In this document: in pieces, positions 28,292 through 62,515 of the stretch
Position numbering within the stretch: the first letter of the stretch is position 1
How the letters are laid out: each line of letters begins with the position of its first letter
Virus record (IMG/VR): IMGVR_UViG_2802428989_000001
Span: 1-64,000 of that record
Length of the DNA stretch: 64,000 bases
Direction: 5' to 3' (one strand)
Source: a virus
Program-made: the position numbers and the translations under genes
The notes under the pieces: generated by a model
What the model was told of the DNA's origin: nothing
Database searches by the model: none
What the model saw: the letters and a program-made list of their open reading frames with translations, nothing else

Positions 28292-29778
28292 CCACTGCAA
28301 TCGCGCTGCCGTCGCTCCAGCTGTCGAAGGACGAACAAGCCGTACTGATGGATCTGACTACTCAGCTCCAGAAGCACCAGGGCGAAAACCTGATCAAAGA
28401 GCAGTACTACGAGGCTAAGCGCCGAATGGAAGATCTCAAGATCGCCATTCCTCCAACACTTTCCAATCTGATGTGCTGCGTAGGCTGGCCCGCCGTCGCT
28501 GTTGACAGTCTAGTTGAGCGGCTGAACTTTGAGGGCTGGTCATACGAGGGTGACGGCGAGGATCGCGACCCGCTGGGGCTCGATGAGATCTTCCTGGAGA
28601 ACGATCTCGATGTCGAGTCGGATGTTAACCACACAGACGGTCTGATGTACGGAACCTCTTTTGTGGCAGTATCTTCCGGGCTAGACGATGAGCCGGAAGT
28701 GGTCGTGACGGTTGAGTCGCCGCGGAACATGACCGCCATCTACGACCCTCGTACGCGGCGCGCTACCTCGGCGTTCCTCCAGATCGTTGATCGCGAGCTG
28801 CGGTTGGTAGGCGGGCGGCTGATTCTGCCCAACGAAATCATTTCTCTGGAATGCGTTCCCATGGAACTCGGCGCGGCGGGTGTGGGAAACATGCGAGTGG
28901 TCGACCGTAACAAGCACAACCTAGAGCGCGTGCTGGTCGCCCAGATGATCAACCGGCCACGGTCGGGTGCGCGCGGCCGCAATGGACACTCTGAAATCAC
29001 CGAAACACTTATCTCGCATACGCAGTCGGGCATGCGGACGCTAGCCAATATGGAAGTAGCGCGCGAGTACCTGGCATCGCCTCAGCGCGCGGTGCTCGGT
29101 GCGAAGGAATCATTCTTCGTCGGGGAGGACGGCAAGCCGGTCCCGGCGTGGAAATCCTATATCGGCCGCATGATCGCACTGGAGCGTGACGAGTATGGCG
29201 AGATCCCTGACATCAAGGAATTCAAGGGCGCCAGCCTGGAATCGTTCTTCGGTCAGATGCGCACACTGAGCCAGCTCGTATCCTCTGAAATTGCTGTCCC
29301 TGCAAACTATTTGGGATTTGAGACAGACAACCCGCCATCTGCCGACGCGATCCGGTCACTAGAGGGTCGCCACGTCAAACGCGCGGAGCAGCGCCAGAAG
29401 ACTTTTGGCCGCGGCTGGTCGGAGACCGCGCGGCTGTGCGTGATGGTGCGTGAAGGCAAGAAGTTCAACGAACTACCCGACGAGATTCGCAAGGTACGCC
29501 CCCAGTGGCGCGACGCCGCAACGCCGACCTTCGCGGCAACATCCGACGCGGTGACCAAGCTCATCGACAAGGGCGTTTACACACCGACATCGCGCGTCAC
29601 CCGCGACAAGCTGGGAATTAGTCGGGCTGATCAGCGACAGATGGAGATTGACGATAAGAAGACGACGGTCACGAACCTCGTCGCGTCGGTCCGTCAAGGT
29701 GTCGAGAATGCACGCCAGGACAGCCAGGTAGCGTCCCTGGCTGACCGTAGAGCGGCATCTGTTGGCCAGCCTGGTTGA
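28288..29778 (+). CDS. Portal protein.
   Basis: 496 aa, directly after the terminase large subunit with an overlapping start. Confidence 0.85.
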   Translation: MTTAIALPSLQLSKDEQAVLMDLTTQLQKHQGENLIKEQYYEAKRRMEDLKIAIPPTLSNLMCCVGWPAVAVDSLVERLNFEGWSYEGDGEDRDPLGLDEIFLENDLDVESDVNHTDGLMYGTSFVAVSSGLDDEPEVVVTVESPRNMTAIYDPRTRRATSAFLQIVDRELRLVGGRLILPNEIISLECVPMELGAAGVGNMRVVDRNKHNLERVLVAQMINRPRSGARGRNGHSEITETLISHTQSGMRTLANMEVAREYLASPQRAVLGAKESFFVGEDGKPVPAWKSYIGRMIALERDEYGEIPDIKEFKGASLESFFGQMRTLSQLVSSEIAVPANYLGFETDNPPSADAIRSLEGRHVKRAEQRQKTFGRGWSETARLCVMVREGKKFNELPDEIRKVRPQWRDAATPTFAATSDAVTKLIDKGVYTPTSRVTRDKLGISRADQRQMEIDDKKTTVTNLVASVRQGVENARQDSQVASLADRRAASVGQPG

Positions 29779-32700
29779 GCAGGCTCAAGCGCTCCAGAGC
29801 GTCCTGGGCGACCTTTCTACGCTATCCACCAAAGACCTTGTGAGCCTGTACAAGAAGCTCGAAGGCGACGGCGCTACCGGTGCCGACTTGCTGGACGCGT
29901 TCAAGGCCGTGTTCCCCGAGGTTGTACAGCCTTACGTCGAGGCCGCATCCGAAGTGGCGAATCAGTGGTACGGGGAGCTGGCACCCGATGAGCCGTACAC
30001 ACCGAAAGCGGTCGCCGCGATCGACGCGGTGCCACTAGACCGCATGATGAACTCTCTGGAGTGGGCGTTTCGCGCCGCTGGCACCGCTCACCCGCTGACA
30101 AGACTGACCGGTTCGGCGCAGCGCATGGTGTTCGACGGTGCTCGCGCGACGATTCTGCACAACGCTGACGCCGAGAATGTCAAGTACTCGCGCCTGGCGT
30201 CGCCGGGTGCGTGCGAGTTCTGTCGAGTGATGGCCACGCGTGGAGCGGTCTACCGCAGCGCTCACGCGGCGCAGGCGGGCCATGACAACTGCCATTGCGT
30301 GCCGGCTGTTGCCCGCGGAAAGCTCAAATTCCAGCGTCCGGGGTACTACCAGGACTGGGATGCCGAGTACATCGAGACGGTCAAACAGCTCGAAGCTGAG
30401 CAGATCAAGCCGACGCTCAACGCGGTCCTGTCGAAAATGCGGGCCAACGAACTGGCCGCGTCAGACAGCGGGCCAACACTGGTAGCGATGTCTACCAAGA
30501 AGTCACCGGCATCGGCGGACCTCGCAAAGTGGCTTGATGCTGAGAAACAGCACCAGGCGGACGTGGCCGCTTGGCTGGACGCCGAGAAGGTAGTCACGAA
30601 GAAGAAGGCCAAGGCCGCGGCGCAGGCGAAGTACGTCGCCAAGAAGAAGGCCACCGCCGAGTGGCTGGCGGCTGAGCAGCAGTACCAGACAGATGTAACG
30701 ACGTGGCTCGCGGCTGAGAAGGACTTCACCAAGAAAAAGGCCAAGGCCGCAGCGCAGGCGAAGTATGTCGCGAACAAGAAGGCGACTGTCGCCTGGCTTA
30801 AGGCCGAGCAGATCTACATCGAGCAGCAGGCCCCACTTGCGACCGCTGCGGCAGCGGCCAAGGCATCCGCGAAGATCACCGCGATGGCGAACGCGGCCGC
30901 GAACGTCGATCTCAAGAAAGCGGCCAAGGCACTCGCGGCGGCCAAGCATGCGGCCAAAAAGAAGGGCGACACTGCCAAGTACAACGTACTGGCCAAGATG
31001 ACGCCCACGGAATACGTGCAATCCAAGGGTGGCAACGCATCCAAGGCCGCGACGACGGCCACCGCCAAGGTCACCACACCGGAGACCGCGCCGACCGCCG
31101 GAGTCGGCACTGTATCCACCGCGACCAAGCCCAAGGTTGTCGTCGGCGAGCTGACAGATTCGCCGAACGTGCTCGCCAGCACCGGTCAGGTACTCGGCAC
31201 GCACGGCGCCACGGTGTACACCGACTCACAGTCTCAGAAGTGGTTGGTCAAGGGGCCCAAGAACCCGAATGATCAATTCCTGGTCACGCTGGATGCGGCA
31301 TCTGCTGAGCTGCAAGCGAAGTCGGGCTTGACGACACCGGCGATGTACATCATGACGGTAGGTGGTAAGCGTCAGTCCGTTCAGTACATGTTCCCCGGAA
31401 GTAAGAGTGCCTTTCCTTCTGGGGTTGACCTGTCCACAATCAGTGAACCTGATCTGTTGACGATCCAGAAGCATCACGCGCTCGACTGGCTGATGGGTAA
31501 TCACGACAGCCATGCTGGGCAGTTCATCCGTACTGGTAGCGGTGAGATCGTCGGAATCGACAAGGGTCAAGCCTTCAAGTATTTCACCGGCGACAAGCTG
31601 GACTGGAACTATCACCCCAACGTCAAGCACGGCACGCCAGAACCCATTTACAACACGCTGTTTCGGCAGTACGCCGAAGGCAAGCCCGGTCAGTTGCTCA
31701 ATCCCTCGGGCGGCGAGCTAGCGGACTACATCCAAGGTTTACAGGCGATTCCAGACAAAGAGATTCGCAACCTATTTCGGCCCTACGCCGAGGGTGCGGT
31801 CAAACAGGGGAAGCTGTTGGTCGAGGCCAACGGTAGCACTCCAACGAACAATGTTGACGCGTTCCTAGACGCAGTTGTTGCCAGAAAGAACAGTCTCGGA
31901 ACCGATCTGAGCGCCTACTACGTCAAGGCTGTCGAAAAGCGTCTGACGAAGACCAAAGTCAAAGGTGAGGTCATCACCGTGCCGCCAGGGATGAGCATCT
32001 CCCAGGGTGACATCCTGCTGCCGACACCATCAGCGACGACGACGGTTCTGTTGCCGTCTGCTGATGTGCTCAAGAAGGCAGGCAAAGCACTCGCATCCGC
32101 GAAGTATCTAGCGAAAAAGAAGGGCGATACAGCCAAGTTCGCCGAGCTGTCGAAGTTGTCACCCGCTCAATACTTGCAGACCAAGAGCGGTGATGGCCTC
32201 GTGCCCACGGCCGCTACCGAGTCACCCACGGGTTCTGCGACCACTATTCAAATTGCCAAGTGGCAAAAGGAATTTCTCCAGAAGTTCGGCTCCAGCGGGT
32301 TCTTCCAGCCTGTCAAGTCGATGGCGGTCGAGAAGGGTATCAAGCTTTCGGAGGCAATCCCAGAGTTCGATAAAGAGTTCGGAATCAACGCCTTGACCGT
32401 GGATCAGATGGTCAACCTGATGGGCTATTACGGCGCGGCCGTCCAGAGCAAGTGGATCAACAAGTATGGCGATCTGCTCGGCGATGACGTAGCCACAAAG
32501 GTGTGGGACAAGCTCAAGGCGCAGGGCAAGTCCACACTCATAGAACCGCCGAAACCTGTTGCCATCAAGCCGGGTACGAAGTACACACCCGAGCATGAGC
32601 AGCCCGTAGCCGAAATCGCCAAGCTGGGTAAGGCTGTCATCGCCAACCCGAAAGCACCGGTTGGATCTGCGGACAACCCGCACATATTCGACGCGAGCGG

Positions 32701-33301
32701 TAAGACGGCGGAGTGGCAGCAGTTCGGATCGCTGATGTCGCCGCAAGACCAGGCATCCTGGAAGGCCAATCAGTACAGCGCCATCAAGTCCTACACCGGC
32801 AGCGGCTATAGCACCATGAACGCGCACGCGCGCGAAGACAAGGTGCCCTCAGCCAAGACGAAGGCGCTCGATTCAGCGTTTTATGAGCACAAGCCTTTCG
32901 AGGAGCACATCGTGCTCAGCCGCGGTACGCACGCTGTTGAGTTCAACGACGAGAACAGTTTGGGAATGAAGTTCAACTTTGCCGACAGCACCGATGTTGA
33001 CGCGCTCAAGGTGCTGGAGGGTGAGACGTACGTGTCCAAGTCCTTCCTGTCCACGTCGATCACCACGGTGCCGGCATTCAGCAACCCGGTCCGCGTGCTG
33101 TACAAAATGAGACCCGGCCAGCGAGGCATTTTCGTCTCAGGCACGCCAGACGGGGCGAACCAACTGACCTCCGTGGGAACACATGAGCGCGAGGTTATCC
33201 TTCCCCGTAACCAGAAGATGAAGGTGCTCGAAGTACGGAAGTCGACCGGGACGCATTCCAAGGTTGACGTGATCGTGGAGGTGGTGGATCAACCTGTCTA
33301 A
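29762..33301 (+). CDS. MuF-family head morphogenesis protein fused to Lys/Ala-rich repeats, a protein-kinase-like (APH/HipA-like) core and a C-terminal R-S-E ADP-ribosyltransferase domain (1179 aa). Start uncertain: TTG at 29762, or GTG near 29840.
   Basis: Follows the portal gene. 'ACEFCRVMATRG...HDNCHC' MuF-like. Repeats 'KKKAKAAAQAKYVAKKKAT'. 'GNHDSHAGQF...VGIDKGQAF' (HGDxxxxN plus IDxG spacing of 18). ART motifs 'YTGSGYSTMNAHAR', 'FLSTSIT' and 'THEREVILP'. Confidence 0.8.
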   Translation: MASLVEQAQALQSVLGDLSTLSTKDLVSLYKKLEGDGATGADLLDAFKAVFPEVVQPYVEAASEVANQWYGELAPDEPYTPKAVAAIDAVPLDRMMNSLEWAFRAAGTAHPLTRLTGSAQRMVFDGARATILHNADAENVKYSRLASPGACEFCRVMATRGAVYRSAHAAQAGHDNCHCVPAVARGKLKFQRPGYYQDWDAEYIETVKQLEAEQIKPTLNAVLSKMRANELAASDSGPTLVAMSTKKSPASADLAKWLDAEKQHQADVAAWLDAEKVVTKKKAKAAAQAKYVAKKKATAEWLAAEQQYQTDVTTWLAAEKDFTKKKAKAAAQAKYVANKKATVAWLKAEQIYIEQQAPLATAAAAAKASAKITAMANAAANVDLKKAAKALAAAKHAAKKKGDTAKYNVLAKMTPTEYVQSKGGNASKAATTATAKVTTPETAPTAGVGTVSTATKPKVVVGELTDSPNVLASTGQVLGTHGATVYTDSQSQKWLVKGPKNPNDQFLVTLDAASAELQAKSGLTTPAMYIMTVGGKRQSVQYMFPGSKSAFPSGVDLSTISEPDLLTIQKHHALDWLMGNHDSHAGQFIRTGSGEIVGIDKGQAFKYFTGDKLDWNYHPNVKHGTPEPIYNTLFRQYAEGKPGQLLNPSGGELADYIQGLQAIPDKEIRNLFRPYAEGAVKQGKLLVEANGSTPTNNVDAFLDAVVARKNSLGTDLSAYYVKAVEKRLTKTKVKGEVITVPPGMSISQGDILLPTPSATTTVLLPSADVLKKAGKALASAKYLAKKKGDTAKFAELSKLSPAQYLQTKSGDGLVPTAATESPTGSATTIQIAKWQKEFLQKFGSSGFFQPVKSMAVEKGIKLSEAIPEFDKEFGINALTVDQMVNLMGYYGAAVQSKWINKYGDLLGDDVATKVWDKLKAQGKSTLIEPPKPVAIKPGTKYTPEHEQPVAEIAKLGKAVIANPKAPVGSADNPHIFDASGKTAEWQQFGSLMSPQDQASWKANQYSAIKSYTGSGYSTMNAHAREDKVPSAKTKALDSAFYEHKPFEEHIVLSRGTHAVEFNDENSLGMKFNFADSTDVDALKVLEGETYVSKSFLSTSITTVPAFSNPVRVLYKMRPGQRGIFVSGTPDGANQLTSVGTHEREVILPRNQKMKVLEVRKSTGTHSKVDVIVEVVDQPV

Positions 33302-53981: not shown

Positions 53982-54308
53982 GTGAACTGGAGCGGCATCG
54001 GAGCCGACAACCTGATGGACTTGGTCGCCTACGGGATCATCGGCATTGCCTACGTGCTGTCGCAACGACAGACGCGCAGTCAGTTGGAGGCCATTCGCGG
54101 TCAGGTCCAAAACGGCCATAAGACACCGATGCGCACCGACCTTGACGAGGTGAAAGACGACGTTCGCGGTATACGAAAGGATTTTGGCGACTTTCGCTCT
54201 GAGGTCCGTACCGGGTTCCGCAATCTGCGCGAAGACCTCAATGCCGAACGTGACGAACGTATTGCGTCGGACCAGGAACTAGCGAAAAGGCACCGCCATG
54301 ATCGGTAA
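53982..54308 (+). CDS. Membrane protein (one TM helix plus a coiled coil); possible lysis accessory protein.
   Basis: GTG start. 'LMDLVAYGIIGIAYVLS' TM helix. Confidence 0.45.
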   Translation: MNWSGIGADNLMDLVAYGIIGIAYVLSQRQTRSQLEAIRGQVQNGHKTPMRTDLDEVKDDVRGIRKDFGDFRSEVRTGFRNLREDLNAERDERIASDQELAKRHRHDR

Positions 54309-54618
54309 CGTCGCGATTGTCGATCGCATCAACCTCATTCAGGGCCAGGACCTCGCGCACCGATGGGATGTGCCAGCTGGTGATGGCCTCCCCGCCGGCA
54401 CCACCGTCACGCTGTATATGTATTCGCATAATTTCAGTGAGACGCTGGGTATCTGGCCATCTATCGACGTTGATACATCCGGTGCGAGCTTCTTCATCGA
54501 AGCCGAGGATCTAGAGCCGATCCCAGCCGGGGCACGATTCCGCGTCTATCTCATCTATCCAGACTCACCCAAGCCTCGGCTGGTCTGGATTCTTGGCACC
54601 GTCTCAAGGCAGGGGTAG
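54298..54618 (+). CDS. Hypothetical protein.
   Basis: Coding bias. Operon position. Confidence 0.45.
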   Translation: MIGNVAIVDRINLIQGQDLAHRWDVPAGDGLPAGTTVTLYMYSHNFSETLGIWPSIDVDTSGASFFIEAEDLEPIPAGARFRVYLIYPDSPKPRLVWILGTVSRQG

Positions 54619-54621
54619 CGG

Positions 54622-54942
54622 ATGATTGACGAAGCTGTTCTGAATGCTATGTGCACCACAATGGTTGGCTACTTCGATGAGGTCTCGCTACACAACGGCG
54701 AGCCCGGTGCCGGTGGTGCCAGTGAGATGCCCGGCATCGCGCGCCAAACGCCGACATGGGCGCCAGCCGACAATGGCGAGTCAACCTCTGTGGTTACGTT
54801 CGCGGCCTATTTCGGGGTATCGACACACATTGGCTTCTGGCATGCCGGTGCATTCGTAGGATCTCGGCCGTTCGTCGCGAACTTCGAGACCGCCGCTGAT
54901 CTGGTGGTGGCGCTCAATCCGTATGTGCAGGAACGAGCATGA
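54622..54942 (+). CDS. Hypothetical protein.
   Basis: RBS 'GGGGTAGCGG'. Coding bias. Confidence 0.45.
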   Translation: MIDEAVLNAMCTTMVGYFDEVSLHNGEPGAGGASEMPGIARQTPTWAPADNGESTSVVTFAAYFGVSTHIGFWHAGAFVGSRPFVANFETAADLVVALNPYVQERA

Positions 54943-55634
54943 CCCTGGTACGTCCACCTAAGCCGTTCACGCGGATGGTTCACGCGCGGCCCGGTGTGCT
55001 GTCTCAGCCCATCGGAGCTGTCGGTAAGGGTGCGCGTATCGGCGTCGTTGCCGATGTTCTGGTGACGGGCAAGATGCACGTCACCGATACCTTCACGAAC
55101 CTGGACAAGTTCACGATGGTGTACGGCGGCCTGCCGTTCTTCGGTGGGGTCCCCTATATCGACGGCGGGAAGCTGGCAGGCCGTGGCCTGGTGCGTCACA
55201 AGGTGCAGGCGATGAGCGACAACGGCCGCGCCAATGCCGTCATCGGCTCGCTGGCGACCGGTAAGACCCGGCTGGTGATCTGCGGTGACGCGCTGTTCAA
55301 CACCTACTACGGCATCGAGGTTGAGACCGGCATCATCAACAACAAGCTGCACATCATCAAGGGCCGCGGCAACGCGGCCACAGTGACCAAGCACGCGACA
55401 GTCAACGTGGCATGGGCCAACAGCGATTCGGTGTCGGTGTGGTACGACGAGCCCAACCACACCATTCGCGCCTACCGGAACAACACGCAGGTGACGAGTC
55501 TGGCGGTGCGAGCCAATGAGATCAACCACGGACCGGGGTTTAGACACCATGGCGTCGCGGTCGGGGTGGATCTGTTCCTGGGTGTGATCAACGTCGGCGC
55601 GCTGTTCACGTCATACGAATATCTCGACGTTTAG
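54939..55634 (+). CDS. Hypothetical protein.
   Basis: Overlapping start. 231 aa. Confidence 0.5.
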   Translation: MTLVRPPKPFTRMVHARPGVLSQPIGAVGKGARIGVVADVLVTGKMHVTDTFTNLDKFTMVYGGLPFFGGVPYIDGGKLAGRGLVRHKVQAMSDNGRANAVIGSLATGKTRLVICGDALFNTYYGIEVETGIINNKLHIIKGRGNAATVTKHATVNVAWANSDSVSVWYDEPNHTIRAYRNNTQVTSLAVRANEINHGPGFRHHGVAVGVDLFLGVINVGALFTSYEYLDV

Positions 55635-55717
55635 CGCCGCCAAAACTGTAGGACATGTACTGTCAACTACCGGGCTACATTCATCTCCGAGACCCATCAT
55701 CCGAGCCTGGAGTAGAG

Positions 55718-56896
55718 ATGCCCGATCTGTCATTCACCATGGACCGCGACGCGTTCACAGAGGCCGTCACGTGGGCCGCACGCATCATCCCCGGTAAGCC
55801 GCAGACGCCCATCCTGGCGGGAATGCTGGCGACGGGAGGAGCATCAGGACTGACGCTGAGCAGTTTCGACCTGGACGTGAGCGCTGAGATTGGCCTTCCC
55901 GACGCGCAGCAGGTGACGCCTGGTAGTTCGCTGGTCAGCGGCCGACTGCTCGCGACAATCGCCAAGGTGCTGCCACGCAAGCCGATCACCTGGACCGATA
56001 ACGGCTCAACCGTGGCCATCCAGTGCGGCAAGGTTGACTTCAGTCTCCCGACGATGCTCGCTGACCAGTACCCCGTACTGCCGGCGCTACCCGAGGACAC
56101 CGGCACCGTCAGCGCCGAGGAGTTCAGTCACGCGGTCACGCAGGTGATCGGCGCGGCCAGCAGCGACGAGGCCAAGCCTGGTCAGATGTGCGTGAGCCTG
56201 GAGATCACCAGTGAGTCCACACTGACACTCACGACAACCAACGGCCACCGGATCGCCATGCGTGAGATCGGCTGGACGCCGCTGTCCGACAACCCGGCCA
56301 TTGGGCAACGCCTTCTGATCCCGACTCGCGCGCTGGCCGAGATTGGCCGACTCGGTGACGATCAGGTCTATCTCGCGATCAGTGGGAATGAAAGCGACGC
56401 GCAGCTTCTCGGCATCCATGGCGGCACTCGACGCATGACTTCGCGACTCGTCGATGACAAGTTCCCCAACTGCCGAGCGGCGCTGCCGAAGCAATACCTG
56501 ACCACCGCGACCGTTGTCGTTCCCGAGATCGCCGAGTCTGTCACCCGCGCACTGGCCGTCACCGGCTCGTCGGCTGACAACCATCCAAGGATGAAGTTGA
56601 CTTTTGGTGACAACACGTTGAATGTCTACGCGAGCACGTCGATCGGCACGGTCAATGAGGACATCGACGTGCAGCTCACCGGAGAGCCTGAGACCGTGTG
56701 GATCAACCCCGTGTACCTCATGGACAGCCTGAATGCTCTCGACAGCGACAAGGCGACCATCGGCCTGCAAGGTGGTCTGCGCGGGTTGATGTTCGCGCCT
56801 GACGTTGTTGAGGCCGATGAGCTGCTAGCCAATCCGCTTGCCGGTGAAACGATTCAGATGATCCAGCCGATTCGTCACACGGAACCGGCCGCGTAG
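55718..56896 (+). CDS. dnaN: DNA polymerase III beta subunit (sliding clamp).
   Basis: RBS 'GGAGTAGAG' before ATG 55718. Three-domain DnaN-like sequence ('TPILAGMLATGGASGLTLSSFDLD...', 'TTNGHRIAMREI', C-terminal 'LMFAP'). Confidence 0.85.
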   Translation: MPDLSFTMDRDAFTEAVTWAARIIPGKPQTPILAGMLATGGASGLTLSSFDLDVSAEIGLPDAQQVTPGSSLVSGRLLATIAKVLPRKPITWTDNGSTVAIQCGKVDFSLPTMLADQYPVLPALPEDTGTVSAEEFSHAVTQVIGAASSDEAKPGQMCVSLEITSESTLTLTTTNGHRIAMREIGWTPLSDNPAIGQRLLIPTRALAEIGRLGDDQVYLAISGNESDAQLLGIHGGTRRMTSRLVDDKFPNCRAALPKQYLTTATVVVPEIAESVTRALAVTGSSADNHPRMKLTFGDNTLNVYASTSIGTVNEDIDVQLTGEPETVWINPVYLMDSLNALDSDKATIGLQGGLRGLMFAPDVVEADELLANPLAGETIQMIQPIRHTEPAA

Positions 56897-56973
56897 ACCC
56901 CCCTGACGGTCGTAGCACCCGACCCTGTCCGGTGAACCAGGTGAGAGCGCTCCCGTCAGGGGCCTCAAAAGGA

Positions 56974-57012
56974 AACGCCCCCAACCGCATTCAGCTCGCG
57001 GTTGGGGGCGTT
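56974..57012. terminator. Bidirectional rho-independent terminator between convergent genes.
   Basis: 15-bp stem AACGCCCCCAACCGC / GCGGTTGGGGGCGTT with T-rich DNA downstream and A-rich DNA upstream. Confidence 0.8.
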
Positions 57013-57020
57013 TTGTATTT

Positions 57021-57188
57021 CTATTGCAATGTCTCGTAGGCGGTAGCTACTTGACCTTTCAGATCTTCGATCGTGTTCAGCGCCTCAAGGTGTGAGTCGA
57101 TGAGTTGCCGCTCGCGTTCGGCGCTCGGGTGGTAGTCCATCTTGTTCACGACTCGTCGCCAACCGGCGAGCGTTTCGCGTTTGATCAT
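57021..57188 (-). CDS. Small hypothetical protein (55 aa).
   Basis: ATG shares its A with the upstream stop (TGATG-style overlap). Last gene of the leftward operon. Confidence 0.35.
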   Translation of the reverse strand: MIKRETLAGWRRVVNKMDYHPSAERERQLIDSHLEALNTIEDLKGQVATAYETLQ

Positions 57189-57628
57189 CAGTGCCCCTCT
57201 CTGGAATCCAATTCGGTTGTAATGTCGGAGATTGGGCGACTTCCCGCCTCGATTCGATCGTGGACGCAGACAGCCCCTACGCACGGGGGACCGTTGAATA
57301 CCCTTTCGATCAGCCCTCCCAGTCGTGAGTCACCGGACGCCATGTTGCCTCCGAACATTGTCCACGTGCGCATCTGGAATGCCGAGAGCGGCACAAAATG
57401 CGGCAGCGCTCCGGGTAGATTTGGCCCGACAAGCACCACGGCGTTATCGCTCGTAGACTCCACAACCCGTGATCCCTCCGGTGGTGGAATCAGCTCACCG
57501 TTGCGGTCGCTCGCGATACCGACCAGAACCAGACGAGAGTGCCGCGCGCTGATGCCATTCAGGGTGCAGTCGGGAAAGTCCGCGGGTCGCAAGACCGTTA
57601 GTTCTAATCCCATCATTGTGTCAGTCAT
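57188..57628 (-). CDS. Hypothetical protein (146 aa) co-transcribed downstream of the ADP-ribosylglycohydrolase gene.
   Basis: ATG shares its A with the glycohydrolase stop. No recognisable motif. Confidence 0.45.
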   Translation of the reverse strand: MTDTMMGLELTVLRPADFPDCTLNGISARHSRLVLVGIASDRNGELIPPPEGSRVVESTSDNAVVLVGPNLPGALPHFVPLSAFQMRTWTMFGGNMASGDSRLGGLIERVFNGPPCVGAVCVHDRIEAGSRPISDITTELDSREGH

Positions 57629-58638
57629 CAGAACTCGTATCCTTCCGCTTCTGAAATCTCTTTCTGGTAGCGCGTTTCCAGCCGATCGAACCACTCGGCA
57701 GGCCATGGGTCGTCATACATCGCGCCGAGGATTGATCCCGCGATCGCCGCGATCGAGTCGCTGTCACCGCTCGTGACCGTCGCGCGACGTAGTGCCGCTA
57801 TCGGGTCATTGGGAAACAGATCGATGCAGAACAGCGCGCACGCCAGCGCATCATGAGCGCGCCAGCCGGGGCCAGCGTGCTCACACGGATCGAGATCCCA
57901 CGGATCAACACCAGAATCACGCAACTGGCGAAGTGCGATATCCGCGGTCAGTAGACGGTCCTGGACGAAGAGCAGACCGCGCGTCATGAACCGACGCACG
58001 CCGACCTCAGCGACGACAGGGTGACCGTCGATCCAACGGGCAACATCCGTAAGTAGAGACGAATCATGATGTAGCCCAGTGCTTGCCAGATAGACCGCCT
58101 CTTCGAGCAGCCGCCCTGGGTAGATGCTTCGCGCATTGCGGATGATCGCTGCGGTCAAGAGCGATGCGGCGATGCCCGTCGCGCGCCCGTGGGTGGATGC
58201 TGCTTGCCACGCGGCGACCCCTTGCCAGCTGCGATCTTTGGTTACGAAAGCTGCTGGACTGACGCGCATTACCGTGCCGCATCCATCCGAGTTCAAAATA
58301 GTGGCCTTGGGCCAGGGGAAGTCGTTCTTCAACGCCCCGATAGCGCGCATGCACGTGTTGCCCGGTGCGCGGTTGTTGTCTGGGTCATCGAACCACTTGA
58401 TCCACTGATCGATGATCTTGACGCCAACCTCATCATCGGTCAATTCTTTTGTGTCGTGGAGACCTCGCGCGAGCGCGAGCGTCATCTGAGTGTCGTCGCT
58501 GATGATCAGCTTCTCAGGCAGCTCTGGGCCCATTAGCCCGTTTTCGGTGAGCTGAGCGTACGACCTGAACTCATTGCGGTAGCCCCACGCATCGCCATAG
58601 GCGACACCACGGAGCACGTTGGACCATTTACTAGGCAT
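57628..58638 (-). CDS. ADP-ribosylglycohydrolase (DraG/ARH family).
   Basis: N-terminal 'GVAYGDAWG' and C-terminal 'SGDSDSIAAIAGSILGAMYD' metal-binding signatures of the ARH fold. Confidence 0.85.
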   Translation of the reverse strand: MPSKWSNVLRGVAYGDAWGYRNEFRSYAQLTENGLMGPELPEKLIISDDTQMTLALARGLHDTKELTDDEVGVKIIDQWIKWFDDPDNNRAPGNTCMRAIGALKNDFPWPKATILNSDGCGTVMRVSPAAFVTKDRSWQGVAAWQAASTHGRATGIAASLLTAAIIRNARSIYPGRLLEEAVYLASTGLHHDSSLLTDVARWIDGHPVVAEVGVRRFMTRGLLFVQDRLLTADIALRQLRDSGVDPWDLDPCEHAGPGWRAHDALACALFCIDLFPNDPIAALRRATVTSGDSDSIAAIAGSILGAMYDDPWPAEWFDRLETRYQKEISEAEGYEF

Positions 58639-58831
58639 TTGGTTTCCTCATATGGAAGGGGACGCACGTTTCGCACTCGTACTTTCCGGACTCATCAGCG
58701 ACGTACACACCGAGAGGTGTGGTGTGCCGCTTCGCGCTGGGCCGCTCCTTGATGGCGAAACGCATGTACATACCCGAGTGCTCGTCGCACGTGACCATTC
58801 CGCCGTTATCGATCCAGACCCTCTTGGCCAT
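58631..58831 (-). CDS. Small zinc-ribbon protein.
   Basis: 'CDEH...CETC'. First gene of the leftward operon. The operator-bearing promoter region lies upstream. Confidence 0.45.
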   Translation of the reverse strand: MAKRVWIDNGGMVTCDEHSGMYMRFAIKERPSAKRHTTPLGVYVADESGKYECETCVPFHMRKPNA

Positions 58832-58855
58832 GAGCAGCCCTTTCGTCCGTTGTTT

Positions 58856-58923
58856 GGTAGACGGCTCTACCGTAGCACATTGGTAGAGCTGTCTACTACT
58901 CTATTGGTAGAATGAACTACCAA
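58856..58923. promoter_or_regulatory. Divergent promoter region with three GGTAGA-type palindromic operators.
   Basis: GGTAGACGGCTCTACC at 58856-71. GGTAGAGCTGTCTACT at 58882-97. TTGGTAG-n6-CTACCAA at 58904-23, abutting ATG 58925. Confidence 0.55.
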
Positions 58924-58924
58924 G

Positions 58925-59731
58925 ATGACACACATGACCGACGACAAGATCGTTGACAAGATCGCAAAGCTGTTGCGACAGGCCGAGGATGTAACAGGGA
59001 CGCCCGAGGAGGATGCGTTTCAAGAGCGCGCCTTCGCACTGCTGGCCAAGCATGGCATCGACCTGGCGACTGTGCGCGCACATCAGCGCGGACTCGACAT
59101 CAGCGACATGCCGAACGCCATCGACACGCTGATGCTTGTTCATAGTCCTTACGCGAGTGAGCAGAAGCACATGCTGTCCATCCTCGCGGAGGCGCTGCAT
59201 TGCAAGACCGTTGGACTCAATGACATCCCGTTCGTGCATGTCTTCGGTATGTCTCACCATGTTGCGCGTCTACAAATGCTCTGGGAGATATTGCAACCAC
59301 AGGCGACGCGCTTGGTTGCCAAAGTGCAGATGTCGAAACGGAAACCGGTTCGCAAGCTCACCCCATCCGAGTGGGCGGCGATGAATCGAGCGCAGCGAAG
59401 AGACCACCTGGTAGAGATGACGCGCGAAAGACGTGCACCGGTATCACTGCACGTTTATCGCCAGTCGTGGTTGATCGGGTTTGCCGCGTCGATCGCTCAG
59501 CGCATTAAGCTCCAGGAAGGAGAGGCCGCCAACAAGGCTGGCGTGGTCGCGCTATACAAGTCCGACCGTGAGCGCGCTGACGACGCGATGCGCGGCGCGT
59601 ACCCGGACGCGGTCAACACTATGGTGGACCAGTTCAGTGACGATGGATTCAACCAGGGTGCGCGCGCCGGACAGACCGCGACCATGGATCGGCCGGTTGA
59701 GTCTGTAGACCCTCTAGGTTTGCCGCGCTAG
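58925..59731 (+). CDS. Hypothetical protein with an alpha-helical N-terminus ('KIVDKIAKLLRQAE...EEDAFQERAFALLAKHGI').
   Basis: ATG immediately after the operator. 268 aa. Confidence 0.55.
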   Translation: MTHMTDDKIVDKIAKLLRQAEDVTGTPEEDAFQERAFALLAKHGIDLATVRAHQRGLDISDMPNAIDTLMLVHSPYASEQKHMLSILAEALHCKTVGLNDIPFVHVFGMSHHVARLQMLWEILQPQATRLVAKVQMSKRKPVRKLTPSEWAAMNRAQRRDHLVEMTRERRAPVSLHVYRQSWLIGFAASIAQRIKLQEGEAANKAGVVALYKSDRERADDAMRGAYPDAVNTMVDQFSDDGFNQGARAGQTATMDRPVESVDPLGLPR

Positions 59732-60815: not shown

Positions 60816-62255
60816 TCAGCTCTTCTTGAGCTTCAAGGTGCCGACGTAATCATTGTCGTAATCCCGAATCTCGAAGTCCGTCATGAGGTTCTGGATCTGA
60901 TCGTCAATGGTCGGCGTGGCGATACCCTCTTCGGCCTCAAACTGCGCCTTGAGCTGGTTGTGCAGCGACACCGCCGCGCCAACCAGATCGGTGGTATCCA
61001 GCTTGTAGTTGGTTCCGCCATTGAGCCGACCGATCGCGAACGTCTTGGCTCGCTCCAGGGCCTCGCGTACGAACGCCGGATAGAAACCGACCACCACGCC
61101 ATCACCAAGCTGGATGGTCATCGCCTCATAGACCTTGTCGTAGTCCACGTCATCTGCAAGACGCTCAGTTGCGACGACGGCCTTGATCAGACGTTCAACA
61201 CCGTTGCGGTCCAGTGCCGCGACCTCAACCACCGCATCGATGCGCCCAGGGCGGAGCATGCCCTTGTGGATGCGCTCAAAGTGGTTGGTAGTCATCAGAA
61301 GTGCGACCTCGGACCCCTTGGATGTGACACCATCGAAGGTCTCCAGCAGCTTGGACACCTGGTCTACGTCGCTGGTCGATGTCTGATTGTCCACGTCCTC
61401 AATGAATACCACCGCGGGCTGGTACAGCTTCGCTGTACGGAGAACATCATTGATGTCATCACCCGGTCGTGCAGCGATGAAAGTCCAACCATTCTGGACA
61501 GCCTCCAGCGCGGTGAGCTGACCAGCCGAGGTCTTCCCGGTACCGTACGGACCCTCCAGCAGCAGCGCGCGCTTGATGCGCACGCCCTCGCCTTTGAGTG
61601 CCTTGCGGTGCCGAATCACCGACCACAGAGTGCCTTCCAGTGTGCTCATCACTTCGTCGGAGAAGACGATCTCACTCGGTACGATGGTCGCGAGGTTCAG
61701 GAACTCCGGTTCCTCGGTGCCGACGATCGCCTTACCGCGATAGATCGAGTTGGTTTTCAGCTCCTCGCCGATCGCATCAAGGAACTCACGCGCGATTTTG
61801 GCGTTCTTCTTCGCAGTGATGACGGTGACATGAGTGACGATCCCGTTGTCGCGATCGCGTTTGCCGCCGACGTTGACCAGCGTCCGATTGTCAACGCTGG
61901 GCAGGTAGACGTTGCCCCATGGAACTTCCAGGGTCTCGGTTGCCGAAATCTGCACCGTGCGGGTTTCCGGGGGTTCGGGCGGGGAGAAGAAACCGCCACC
62001 ACTCGGAGCGCCGATGGTGATACCGAACATGCGCTTCATCACCCGAGAGGTGGCGACCGCGCCGTCAAACGGACGGAACTGGTAGGTGCGGCTAGTCTGC
62101 TGCACCGACTCGGCCTCATCCTGCATGCGCTCCAGGATCTCCTTGGCGCGACCGTATGTAATGCCTTCCGGCAGAACGATCTGCGGGTTCTTGTGAAAGG
62201 TAACCTCATCACCGGTGATGATGTCGGTATCGTTCATTGGTTTTCTCACTTTCAT
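60816..62255 (-). CDS. Classic-clade AAA+ ATPase with a ~250-aa N-terminal domain of unknown function.
   Basis: Walker A 'GPYGTGKTS'. Walker B 'VVFIEDVD'. Second region of homology 'RPGRID'. Start chosen at MKVRK (RBS GGAAGGTG). The ORF track extends it to 62393. Confidence 0.8.
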   Translation of the reverse strand: MKVRKPMNDTDIITGDEVTFHKNPQIVLPEGITYGRAKEILERMQDEAESVQQTSRTYQFRPFDGAVATSRVMKRMFGITIGAPSGGGFFSPPEPPETRTVQISATETLEVPWGNVYLPSVDNRTLVNVGGKRDRDNGIVTHVTVITAKKNAKIAREFLDAIGEELKTNSIYRGKAIVGTEEPEFLNLATIVPSEIVFSDEVMSTLEGTLWSVIRHRKALKGEGVRIKRALLLEGPYGTGKTSAGQLTALEAVQNGWTFIAARPGDDINDVLRTAKLYQPAVVFIEDVDNQTSTSDVDQVSKLLETFDGVTSKGSEVALLMTTNHFERIHKGMLRPGRIDAVVEVAALDRNGVERLIKAVVATERLADDVDYDKVYEAMTIQLGDGVVVGFYPAFVREALERAKTFAIGRLNGGTNYKLDTTDLVGAAVSLHNQLKAQFEAEEGIATPTIDDQIQNLMTDFEIRDYDNDYVGTLKLKKS

Positions 62256-62307
62256 TGAATGCACCTTCCGCACCTTGCGAAAGAGGTTGTTGTTGGTGAT
62301 GTTTGAA

Positions 62308-62350
62308 CACCCCCGCCCGCCACCCGGTATAGAAAGAACGGGCGGGGGTG
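62308..62350. other. Perfect 12-bp GC hairpin (CACCCCCGCCCG ... CGGGCGGGGGTG) in the leader region of the AAA gene.
   Basis: 19-nt loop. Lies between the upstream small gene and the AAA start. Confidence 0.5.
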
Positions 62351-62515
62351 CGTTGTGTTGGTGACGTGAGCCAGTCTTAGGGATCGCGCCCAATGACCAC
62401 TTAGCGCGCTAGCTCGCGTCCTTACCGTGGCCGCGACCAACGAAATCACTTCTCAGACAAACGAGACGGGACCAGGGGGCGTGAGGGTCGCTCACGACCC
62501 CTGGTGATCTGCTGA

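Follow-up and report, generated by a model that had tools for sequence, protein, structure and literature searches.

DnaN-type sliding clamps are a recognised family of phage genes, and a tblastn search located them in 115 phage records, mostly those of Arthrobacter and Mycobacterium phages. The T4 clamp gp45 activates late transcription. The drug-resistant pathogen Mycobacteroides (Mycobacterium) abscessus is a host of such clamp-bearing prophages, and DnaN has been validated as a drug target (griselimycins). Overexpression of a distant phage clamp, Waterfoul gp48, was toxic to M. smegmatis, an effect ascribed by its authors to the sensitivity of the replisome to component stoichiometry (PMC9339283). 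Here we analyse the clamp encoded by gene 81 (gp81) in a window of 64,000 nucleotides, which corresponds to Mycobacterium phage prophiFSAT01-1 (BK061308.1), a cluster MabR prophage of M. abscessus (100% match over the full length in a megablast search with positions 55718-56896). Gene 81 is already annotated in GenBank and is a named cluster-wide feature in the MabR prophage paper (PMC9434293), and as a member of the phage clamp family it is largely ordinary. The present analysis adds three elements: the clamp belongs to a diverged phage lineage and is no host capture, the succession of lysis cassette and clamp is a recurrent module in DS6A-like phages and prophages of mycobacteria, and rare polar substitutions in the pocket that binds partners are confined to the MabR branch.

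Family, fold and ancestry of the gene 81 clamp

The coding sequence of gene 81 spans positions 55718-56896 on the plus strand (55935-57113 in BK061308.1, whose coordinates are those of the window plus 217), consists of 392 codons and a stop, and matches the annotated gene exactly. A ribosome-binding site, GGAG, is found at 55709-55712 with the ATG 5 nt further on, and the N-terminus MPDLSF lines up with residue 1 of the closest homologues. These features, together with the location of the gene in a prophage record, bear out the proposal of the first-pass annotation that the phage carries a full-length beta-clamp gene with its own ribosome-binding site. An alternative in-frame ATG at 55655 is possible, but is unsupported by the homologues and by the annotation. 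The frame shows a GC content of 0.77 at third codon positions vs 0.48 at second positions and has a composition like that of the remainder of the phage; the antisense open reading frames within the gene are the usual high-GC artefacts.

All three Pfam DnaN domains were identified in the order N-terminal, central and C-terminal, each above its gathering cut-off: domain I at residues 5-122 (55730-56083, plus strand; PF00712, E 7.9e-29), domain II at residues 131-251 (56108-56470, plus strand; PF02767, E 1.1e-16), which includes pocket subsite I with the atypical Q156 and N175, and domain III at residues 254-387 (56477-56878, plus strand; PF02768, E 2.8e-13 over residues 254-357). In addition, the protein scored 206.4 bits against NCBIfam model TIGR00663, whose curated equivalog cut-off is 137.65, and matched phrog_947 ('DNA polymerase processivity factor') with E 7.9e-66, residues 5-362 aligning with profile positions 4-351 of 368. 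DnaN families alone were recovered at E <= 0.01, with no match to T4 gp45 or PCNA-type families. An AlphaFold model of the product, obtained with an input alignment of 38 sequences, was confident (predicted local distance difference test 88.3, predicted template modelling score 0.85). Foldseek comparison of this model with the PDB gave mycobacterial clamps as top matches (M. marinum, M. thermoresistibile, M. smegmatis and M. tuberculosis), with template modelling (TM) scores of 0.88-0.92, root-mean-square deviations of 2.3-3.4 A and 35-37% identity, and a phmmer search of PDB sequences ranked the same clamps first (E ~1e-74). Sequence and predicted structure agree that gene 81 encodes a complete DnaN-type clamp of three domains; its place in the family is secure, and the three-domain fold presumed at first pass is present in the model.

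Regarding the relation with host DnaN, the global identity of gp81 was about 38% to the chromosomal DnaN of M. septicum and M. kyorinense and 22% to that of E. coli. The former two proteins, taken from genome loci, and PDB structures served as host proxies; M. abscessus DnaN is not among them, and a genome-collection scan for host dnaN seeded with the M. thermoresistibile clamp yielded 80 Mycolicibacterium/Mycobacterium loci, none of them from M. abscessus. When 1.84 billion representatives were searched exhaustively with HMMER, the nearest relatives outside MabR were two proteins, P0047 (46% identity) and P0048 (44%), both members of tiny metagenomic clusters. In a tree made by neighbour-joining only (371 columns, 100 bootstraps, limited sampling, M. 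abscessus DnaN left out), the MabR clamps formed one clade with DS6A gp34, P0047-P0055 and prophiGD34-2 gp9 (bootstrap 90). Chromosomal mycobacterial DnaN formed a separate clade (support 100), and other actinobacterial DnaNs also stood apart. Recent host capture or horizontal transfer is rejected in view of the ~38% identity, the tree and the base composition. The comparison with host dnaN that had been suggested as a check thus returned a diverged phage lineage and no host-derived copy, and the MabR clamp is, as judged from these sequences, an old lineage.

An intact orthologue is present in all five MabR prophages, with amino-acid identities of 73-96%. The four counterparts of gene 81 (McProf gp83, prophiFSIL01-1 gp81, prophiFVLQ01-1 gp84 and prophiFSQJ01-1 gp84; PMC9434293) occupy the same position and have the same atypical pocket residues. 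Since the gene is intact in the five genomes and the Nei-Gojobori dN/dS values among the orthologues were 0.08-0.19, with dS up to about 1.1, the clamp is under purifying selection and is no decaying remnant.

Proposed role in phage replication and the partner-binding pocket

According to curated annotation and Pfam checks, the replication set of the phage comprises a 235-aa PrimPol, a DnaB/RepA-like helicase, a DnaQ-like exonuclease, Cas4-type and other nucleases, and RusA; neither a replicative polymerase nor a clamp loader is annotated in the genome. We favour, with moderate confidence, the reading that gene 81 encodes a phage-lineage DnaN clamp that serves as processivity factor with host DNA polymerase III (Pol III) in phage replication. 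The protein would form a head-to-tail homodimeric ring, which the host clamp loader would set on primed phage DNA; in lytic replication the ring would then tether the DnaE1/Pol III core of the host, perhaps together with phage enzymes, and the phage would thereby gain its own clamp supply. Rightward transcription of the gene would start either at a weak promoter inside the 83-bp leader or among the preceding structural, lysis and tail-like genes, with read-through into the clamp, and in this prophage would end at a hairpin at 56973-57013.

This model is supported by the conservation of the basic channel residues, the dimer-interface residues and most of the pocket. In the alignment, gp81 keeps channel residues K27, R76, K83, R204 and R211 and interface positions F108, L110, V281 and E314. 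The pocket was defined by subsites I and II of E. coli beta as listed in PMC11139829, mapped by alignment, and gp81 has the same residue or a conservative substitution at 12 of the 18 published positions (T174, G176, H177, R178, I179, P250, N330, Y333, P384, I385, R386 and K153). The presence of DNA-metabolism genes after the clamp in clade relatives also counts for a role in replication, as do the early-operon location of a more distant clamp in other M. abscessus prophages, the toxicity of overexpressed Waterfoul gp48, the purifying selection on the gene and the lack of an annotated replicative polymerase or clamp loader.

Several points weigh against this role. The clamp comes last in the late (structural, lysis and tail-like) gene block, which is odd for a replication factor needed early; no terminator was found between gp80 and the clamp, the first strong terminator following the clamp, so that the gene could belong to the late transcript as its final cistron. 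The MabR authors consider the clamp region 'most likely expressed during lysogeny' (PMC9434293), and the literature searched contained no functional study of gene 81 or of a closely related phage clamp. Furthermore, the rare polar or small residues of the pocket could weaken the binding of canonical host motifs by gp81. Finally, no strict QxxLF/QLxLxL clamp-binding motif was found in gp7, gp11, gp15, gp23 or gp37. Strict and loose patterns were searched over 94 annotated proteins, and the loose matches were scattered and internal (such as QLGLML in the repressor and QMTLAL in the ADP-ribosylglycohydrolase, ARH), resembled chance or catalytic motifs, and did not fall at the termini of those five proteins. 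The QLxLF-like motifs whose presence in phage replication proteins had been suggested as a check were therefore not found, a result that argues neither for nor against direct partners in the phage, especially should the pocket have been re-specified.

The remaining pocket positions were compared across 170 related DnaN homologues. At the equivalents of E. coli L155, R246, V247, V360 and M362, gp81 has Q, A, A, M and Q, respectively, as read from the alignment alone; the position equivalent to V344 is variable across actinobacteria, and the flanking positions D173, S/P346 and L366 are occupied by N, G and H. The residue equivalent to L155 is hydrophobic (L/F/I/M/Y/V) in 167 of the homologues, with glutamine (Q156) only in the MabR clamp, although the 152-156 loop is variable and the neighbouring Met157 might replace residue 156 structurally. 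Aspartate is found in 166 of 170 at the position of N175 (E. coli D173), proline in 124 at that of G356 (E. coli S346), and methionine in 142 at that of Q383 (E. coli M362), where glutamine occurs in six; the position of H387 (E. coli L366) is varied and hydrophobic, not dominated by Q or H. Both Q383 and H387 belong to the final strand of domain III, in which MIQPIRH is the equivalent of E. coli VVMPMRL; the AlphaFold model places a strand at residues 378-382. The rare residues are conserved among MabR clamps and the nearest outgroups, P0047, P0048 and DS6A, retain canonical ones, which indicates that the substitutions are specific to the MabR branch. As far as sequence can tell, they hint at altered partner or inhibitor specificity.

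An alternative that we consider unlikely is that the clamp is a lysogenic-conversion or defence gene, expressed from the prophage and acting on the host. It could be an extra or orthogonal clamp with effects on replication, repair or mutagenesis, a decoy or substitute that withstands the clamp inhibitors of superinfecting phages, or a sink for proteins that bind clamps. The lineage-specific pocket substitutions would fit such a function, as would the placement of the gene in the lysis-to-attR region, thought by the MabR authors to be lysogenically expressed (PMC9434293), and second DnaN copies, griR and mypR, do act as resistance factors (PMC10817943). The neighbours gp84, gp85-86 and gp91-92 are expressed in the McProf lysogen; RNA sequencing names these genes and the toxin cassette, in a text without the clamp gp83 (PMC8191103). 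The clamp is thus not named among the lysogenically expressed McProf genes (PMC9434293, PMC8191103), and it lies on the late-operon strand, convergent to the expressed neighbours. Moreover, neither the clamp nor its immediate neighbours matched PADLOC-DB, a distant AAA-ATPase giving only a P-loop-level match to IetA, and the clade relatives adjoin exonuclease genes in apparently lytic-type contexts.

The pocket substitutions would acquire a more specific meaning if the clamp had been re-specified, either for a private phage partner or to remain functional when the pocket of the host clamp is blocked, a reading that we regard as quite improbable. Such a block could come from the clamp-targeting proteins of rival phages or from natural products of the griselimycin/mycoplanecin type. 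If this were true and the clamp were expressed in the lysogen, M. abscessus and M. chelonae lysogens would possess an inhibitor-insensitive back-up clamp resembling GriR/MypR; a small residual chance exists that the atypical pocket marks a specialised function.

It is very improbable that gp81 is a co-activator of late transcription, a DNA-loaded clamp coupling replication to late genes as do T4 gp45 or, in phage Mu, the host beta clamp. The position of the gene behind the other late-block genes and the precedents of clamp-activated late transcription, in T4 and in Mu (PMC12867686 for Mu), agree with such a function. On the other hand, no gp33/gp55- or MuC-like partner was identified, no sequence feature indicates contact with RNA polymerase, and late genes activated by a late product would involve a circularity, unless the activator were made early as well. 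The last alternative, that gene 81 is what is left of a captured host dnaN, without function or in decay, would suit a gene set apart from the other replication genes with a mosaic variable region on its 3' side, but is effectively refuted by the selection and phylogeny results, that is, the intact and constrained orthologues and the grouping with phage clamps away from chromosomal DnaN, besides the phage-typical composition and the complete predicted fold.

The AAA-ATPase gp90 (60816-62393, minus strand) was considered as a clamp loader for the proposed replication role and rejected: its AAA domain is CDC48/PAN/FtsH-like, not RFC/DnaX-like, and its similarity to clamp-loader/RFC profiles is of the generic P-loop type (phrog_168, E 4.5e-4 without a matching stretch; NF003229, 25.6 bits vs a cut-off of 280). 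This 525-aa protein shows weak nSTAND3 and IetA/IteA P-loop similarity and is a possible ATPase of the defence type; expression in lysogeny is reported for the McProf orthologue, gp91 (PMC9434293/PMC8191103).

Genomic setting and flanking sequences

The clamp lies far from the replication genes, which occupy about 4.5-19.4 kb of the window, in agreement with the first-pass description of a gene away from the block of PrimPol, helicase and exonuclease, and it converges on the ARH operon (gp85-82). The same description placed the clamp after the lysis cassette. It is indeed downstream of the cassette but does not abut it directly, the interval between holin and clamp holding four genes, gp77-80 (53982-55634, plus strand). 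Among them, gp77 is a DUF2746 protein, gp78 is an LtfC-like protein of the beta-sandwich type (E 4e-16) and gp80 matches PHROGs of minor tail proteins (E 1e-23). Tail-type genes are thus found downstream of the lysis cassette.

The order of lysis cassette and clamp recurs in DS6A, in metagenomic contigs and in a Mycolicibacter prophage, and the location is consequently not the unusual one it had been taken for. DS6A carries LysA, LysB, two small genes, the gp34 clamp, a small gene and a phrog_284 exonuclease. A 59-kb metagenomic phage contig (L007) has an amidase, a peptidoglycan-binding protein, a holin, DUF7427, a small gene, the clamp, a small gene and a phrog_284 exonuclease. In the Mycolicibacter algericus prophage (L008/L009), a peptidase M15 lysin is followed by further genes, DUF7427, the clamp and an RNaseH/PolB-exo-like exonuclease. 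Shorter stretches show holin, small gene, DUF7427 and clamp (L094), and DUF7427, small gene and clamp (the JGI contig of P0049). In the contig of P0051 (L093), the upstream genes have no family matches, and downstream there are a small gene and a protein of ~400 aa as in DS6A, the latter Metallophos_2-like and of the same size as the phrog_284 exonuclease of DS6A and L007. Wherever upstream genes could be identified (DS6A, P0047, P0049, P0052 and P0054), the clamp follows the lysis cassette, and this recurrence in the clade makes the placement typical of the phage lineage. For cluster O phages, the published gene list likewise suggests that lysin A, lysin B and holin precede the clamp (PMC10893344). 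LysA and LysB of the prophage are 37% and 28% identical to their DS6A counterparts and the clamp 35%; these similar values are compatible with joint inheritance of the block. MabR departs from its relatives in having the convergent operon gp85-82 in place of the downstream exonuclease module.

Between gp80 and the clamp there is an 83-bp leader (55635-55717, plus strand), which contains, besides the ribosome-binding site, a -10-like TANNNT hexamer (TACATT, 55676-55681). Aligned over the five MabR prophages, the leader shows 86% mean column identity, as conserved as coding sequence, and the hexamer stays TANNNT in all five genomes despite substitutions (TACATT in three, TACTGT and TAGATT in the others). 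A conserved block, AAAACTGTAGGACATGxACTGTCAACTACCGGG, lies within the leader. No terminator-like or stable fold was predicted in it (z = +0.31), and a scan of 54000-59500 found no sigma-70 consensus promoter. The leader may be a promoter or operator, but the conserved hexamer is in itself no proof of function.

On the 3' side, a hairpin resembling a bidirectional intrinsic terminator occupies 56973-57023 (arms 56973-56988 and 56998-57013, both strands), with a perfect stem of 16-17 bp and a loop of 9 nt, 76 nt past the clamp stop codon and immediately before the convergent gene, whose end is at 57021. Its folding energy is about -40 kcal/mol (z = -6.5 on the plus strand and -5.3 on the minus strand), no shuffled sequence folded equally well on either strand, and a U-run follows the hairpin on each strand. 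A pattern scan missed it because of the 9-nt loop, and it was recovered by folding and repeat search. Equivalent hairpins were found in three of the five MabR prophages (prophiFSAT01-1, prophiFSIL01-1 and prophiFSQJ01-1), whereas none was detected in the 121-141 nt folded 3' of the clamp in McProf and prophiFVLQ01-1. The bidirectional terminator that the first-pass annotation had placed at the end of the gene is therefore real in this prophage, as stem, energy and U-runs attest, but it is kept in just those three genomes.

The sequence from the clamp stop codon to the ARH operon forms a mosaic slot, with small reverse-strand genes that differ between the MabR prophages and are mostly unrelated (56897-57188 in the window; 9180-9627 in L002, 4174-4643 in L090, 4180-4653 in L091 and 4201-4714 in L092). 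The McProf gene in this slot, gp84, is reported as the most highly expressed lysogenic gene (PMC8191103); the slot gene of prophiFSAT01-1, gp82, is not homologous to it.

Long GC-rich hairpins were also observed directly 3' of the clamp in DS6A and in two metagenomic or prophage relatives (about 7169-7258 in L005, 11180-11267 in L007 and 8457-8531 in L008), with outer stems of 15-20 bp enclosing ~50-60 nt. Those of DS6A and L007 have the sequence blocks GGCGGCGTTGAT...GGAATGCCGC in common. None of the three hairpins matched Rfam; an Rfam scan gave nothing in the window and only tRNAs, in L008. These hairpins may be terminators or another conserved structured element.

The ARH gene itself (57628-58638, minus strand; PF03747, E 5e-49) has a possible counterpart in function elsewhere in the phage. 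The product of gp53 (29762-33301, plus strand) is a VG15/MuF-like minor capsid protein with a C-terminal ADP-ribosyltransferase (ART) toxin domain (PF03496, residues 1001-1170, E 1e-15), for which the ARH may be an antidote or immunity factor. An ARH gene is also found in the Mycolicibacter prophage, 3.4 kb downstream of the clamp (L008, 11886-12899). Given this second occurrence near a clamp and the ART domain of gp53, the ARH operon probably relates to the virion-borne ART and not to the clamp.

Comparison with known clamps

Among MabR prophages, the orthologous clamps differ from gene 81 in their 3' flank, where the hairpin is missing in McProf and prophiFVLQ01-1 and the small reverse genes are unrelated. 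Outside the cluster, DS6A gp34, annotated as 'DNA polymerase processivity factor', and P0047-P0055 belong to the same phage clamp clade, at 35-43% identity to gp81. Unlike gp81, they have the canonical equivalents of Met362, Asp173 and Pro346, and they are followed by same-strand exonuclease genes instead of a convergent ARH operon. The clamps of other M. abscessus prophages (e.g. prophiGD34-2 gp9), of Arthrobacter phages and of cluster K and O actinophages are also DnaN-type and from temperate phages, with identities to gp81 of 25-31%; that of prophiGD34-2 is located in an early operon adjoining the immunity region, unlike gp81.

Chromosomal mycobacterial DnaN provides the best matches among solved structures (PDB 3P16/3RB9 from M. 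tuberculosis, 5AH2 from M. smegmatis, 6D47 from M. marinum and 8DJ6/8DKD from M. thermoresistibile). It has in common with gp81 the three-domain fold and an insertion before the last strand, but the identity is only 36-38% and the host proteins form their separate clade. The pockets differ at Q156 (L in the mycobacterial host), N175 (D), G176/H177 (R/F), G356 (P), Q383 (M) and H387 (L). T4 gp45 and PCNA-type clamps perform the same processivity job, with the additional late-transcription function in T4, but they are trimers of two-domain subunits, whereas gp81 has only the three DnaN domain families of dimer-forming clamps and belongs to a different family. Finally, GriR and MypR, which confer self-resistance to griselimycin and mycoplanecin, are likewise extra DnaN paralogues beside an essential chromosomal copy; their genes reside in antibiotic biosynthetic clusters of producer actinomycetes, whereas gene 81 lies in the late, right-arm region of a prophage with no non-ribosomal peptide synthetase genes.

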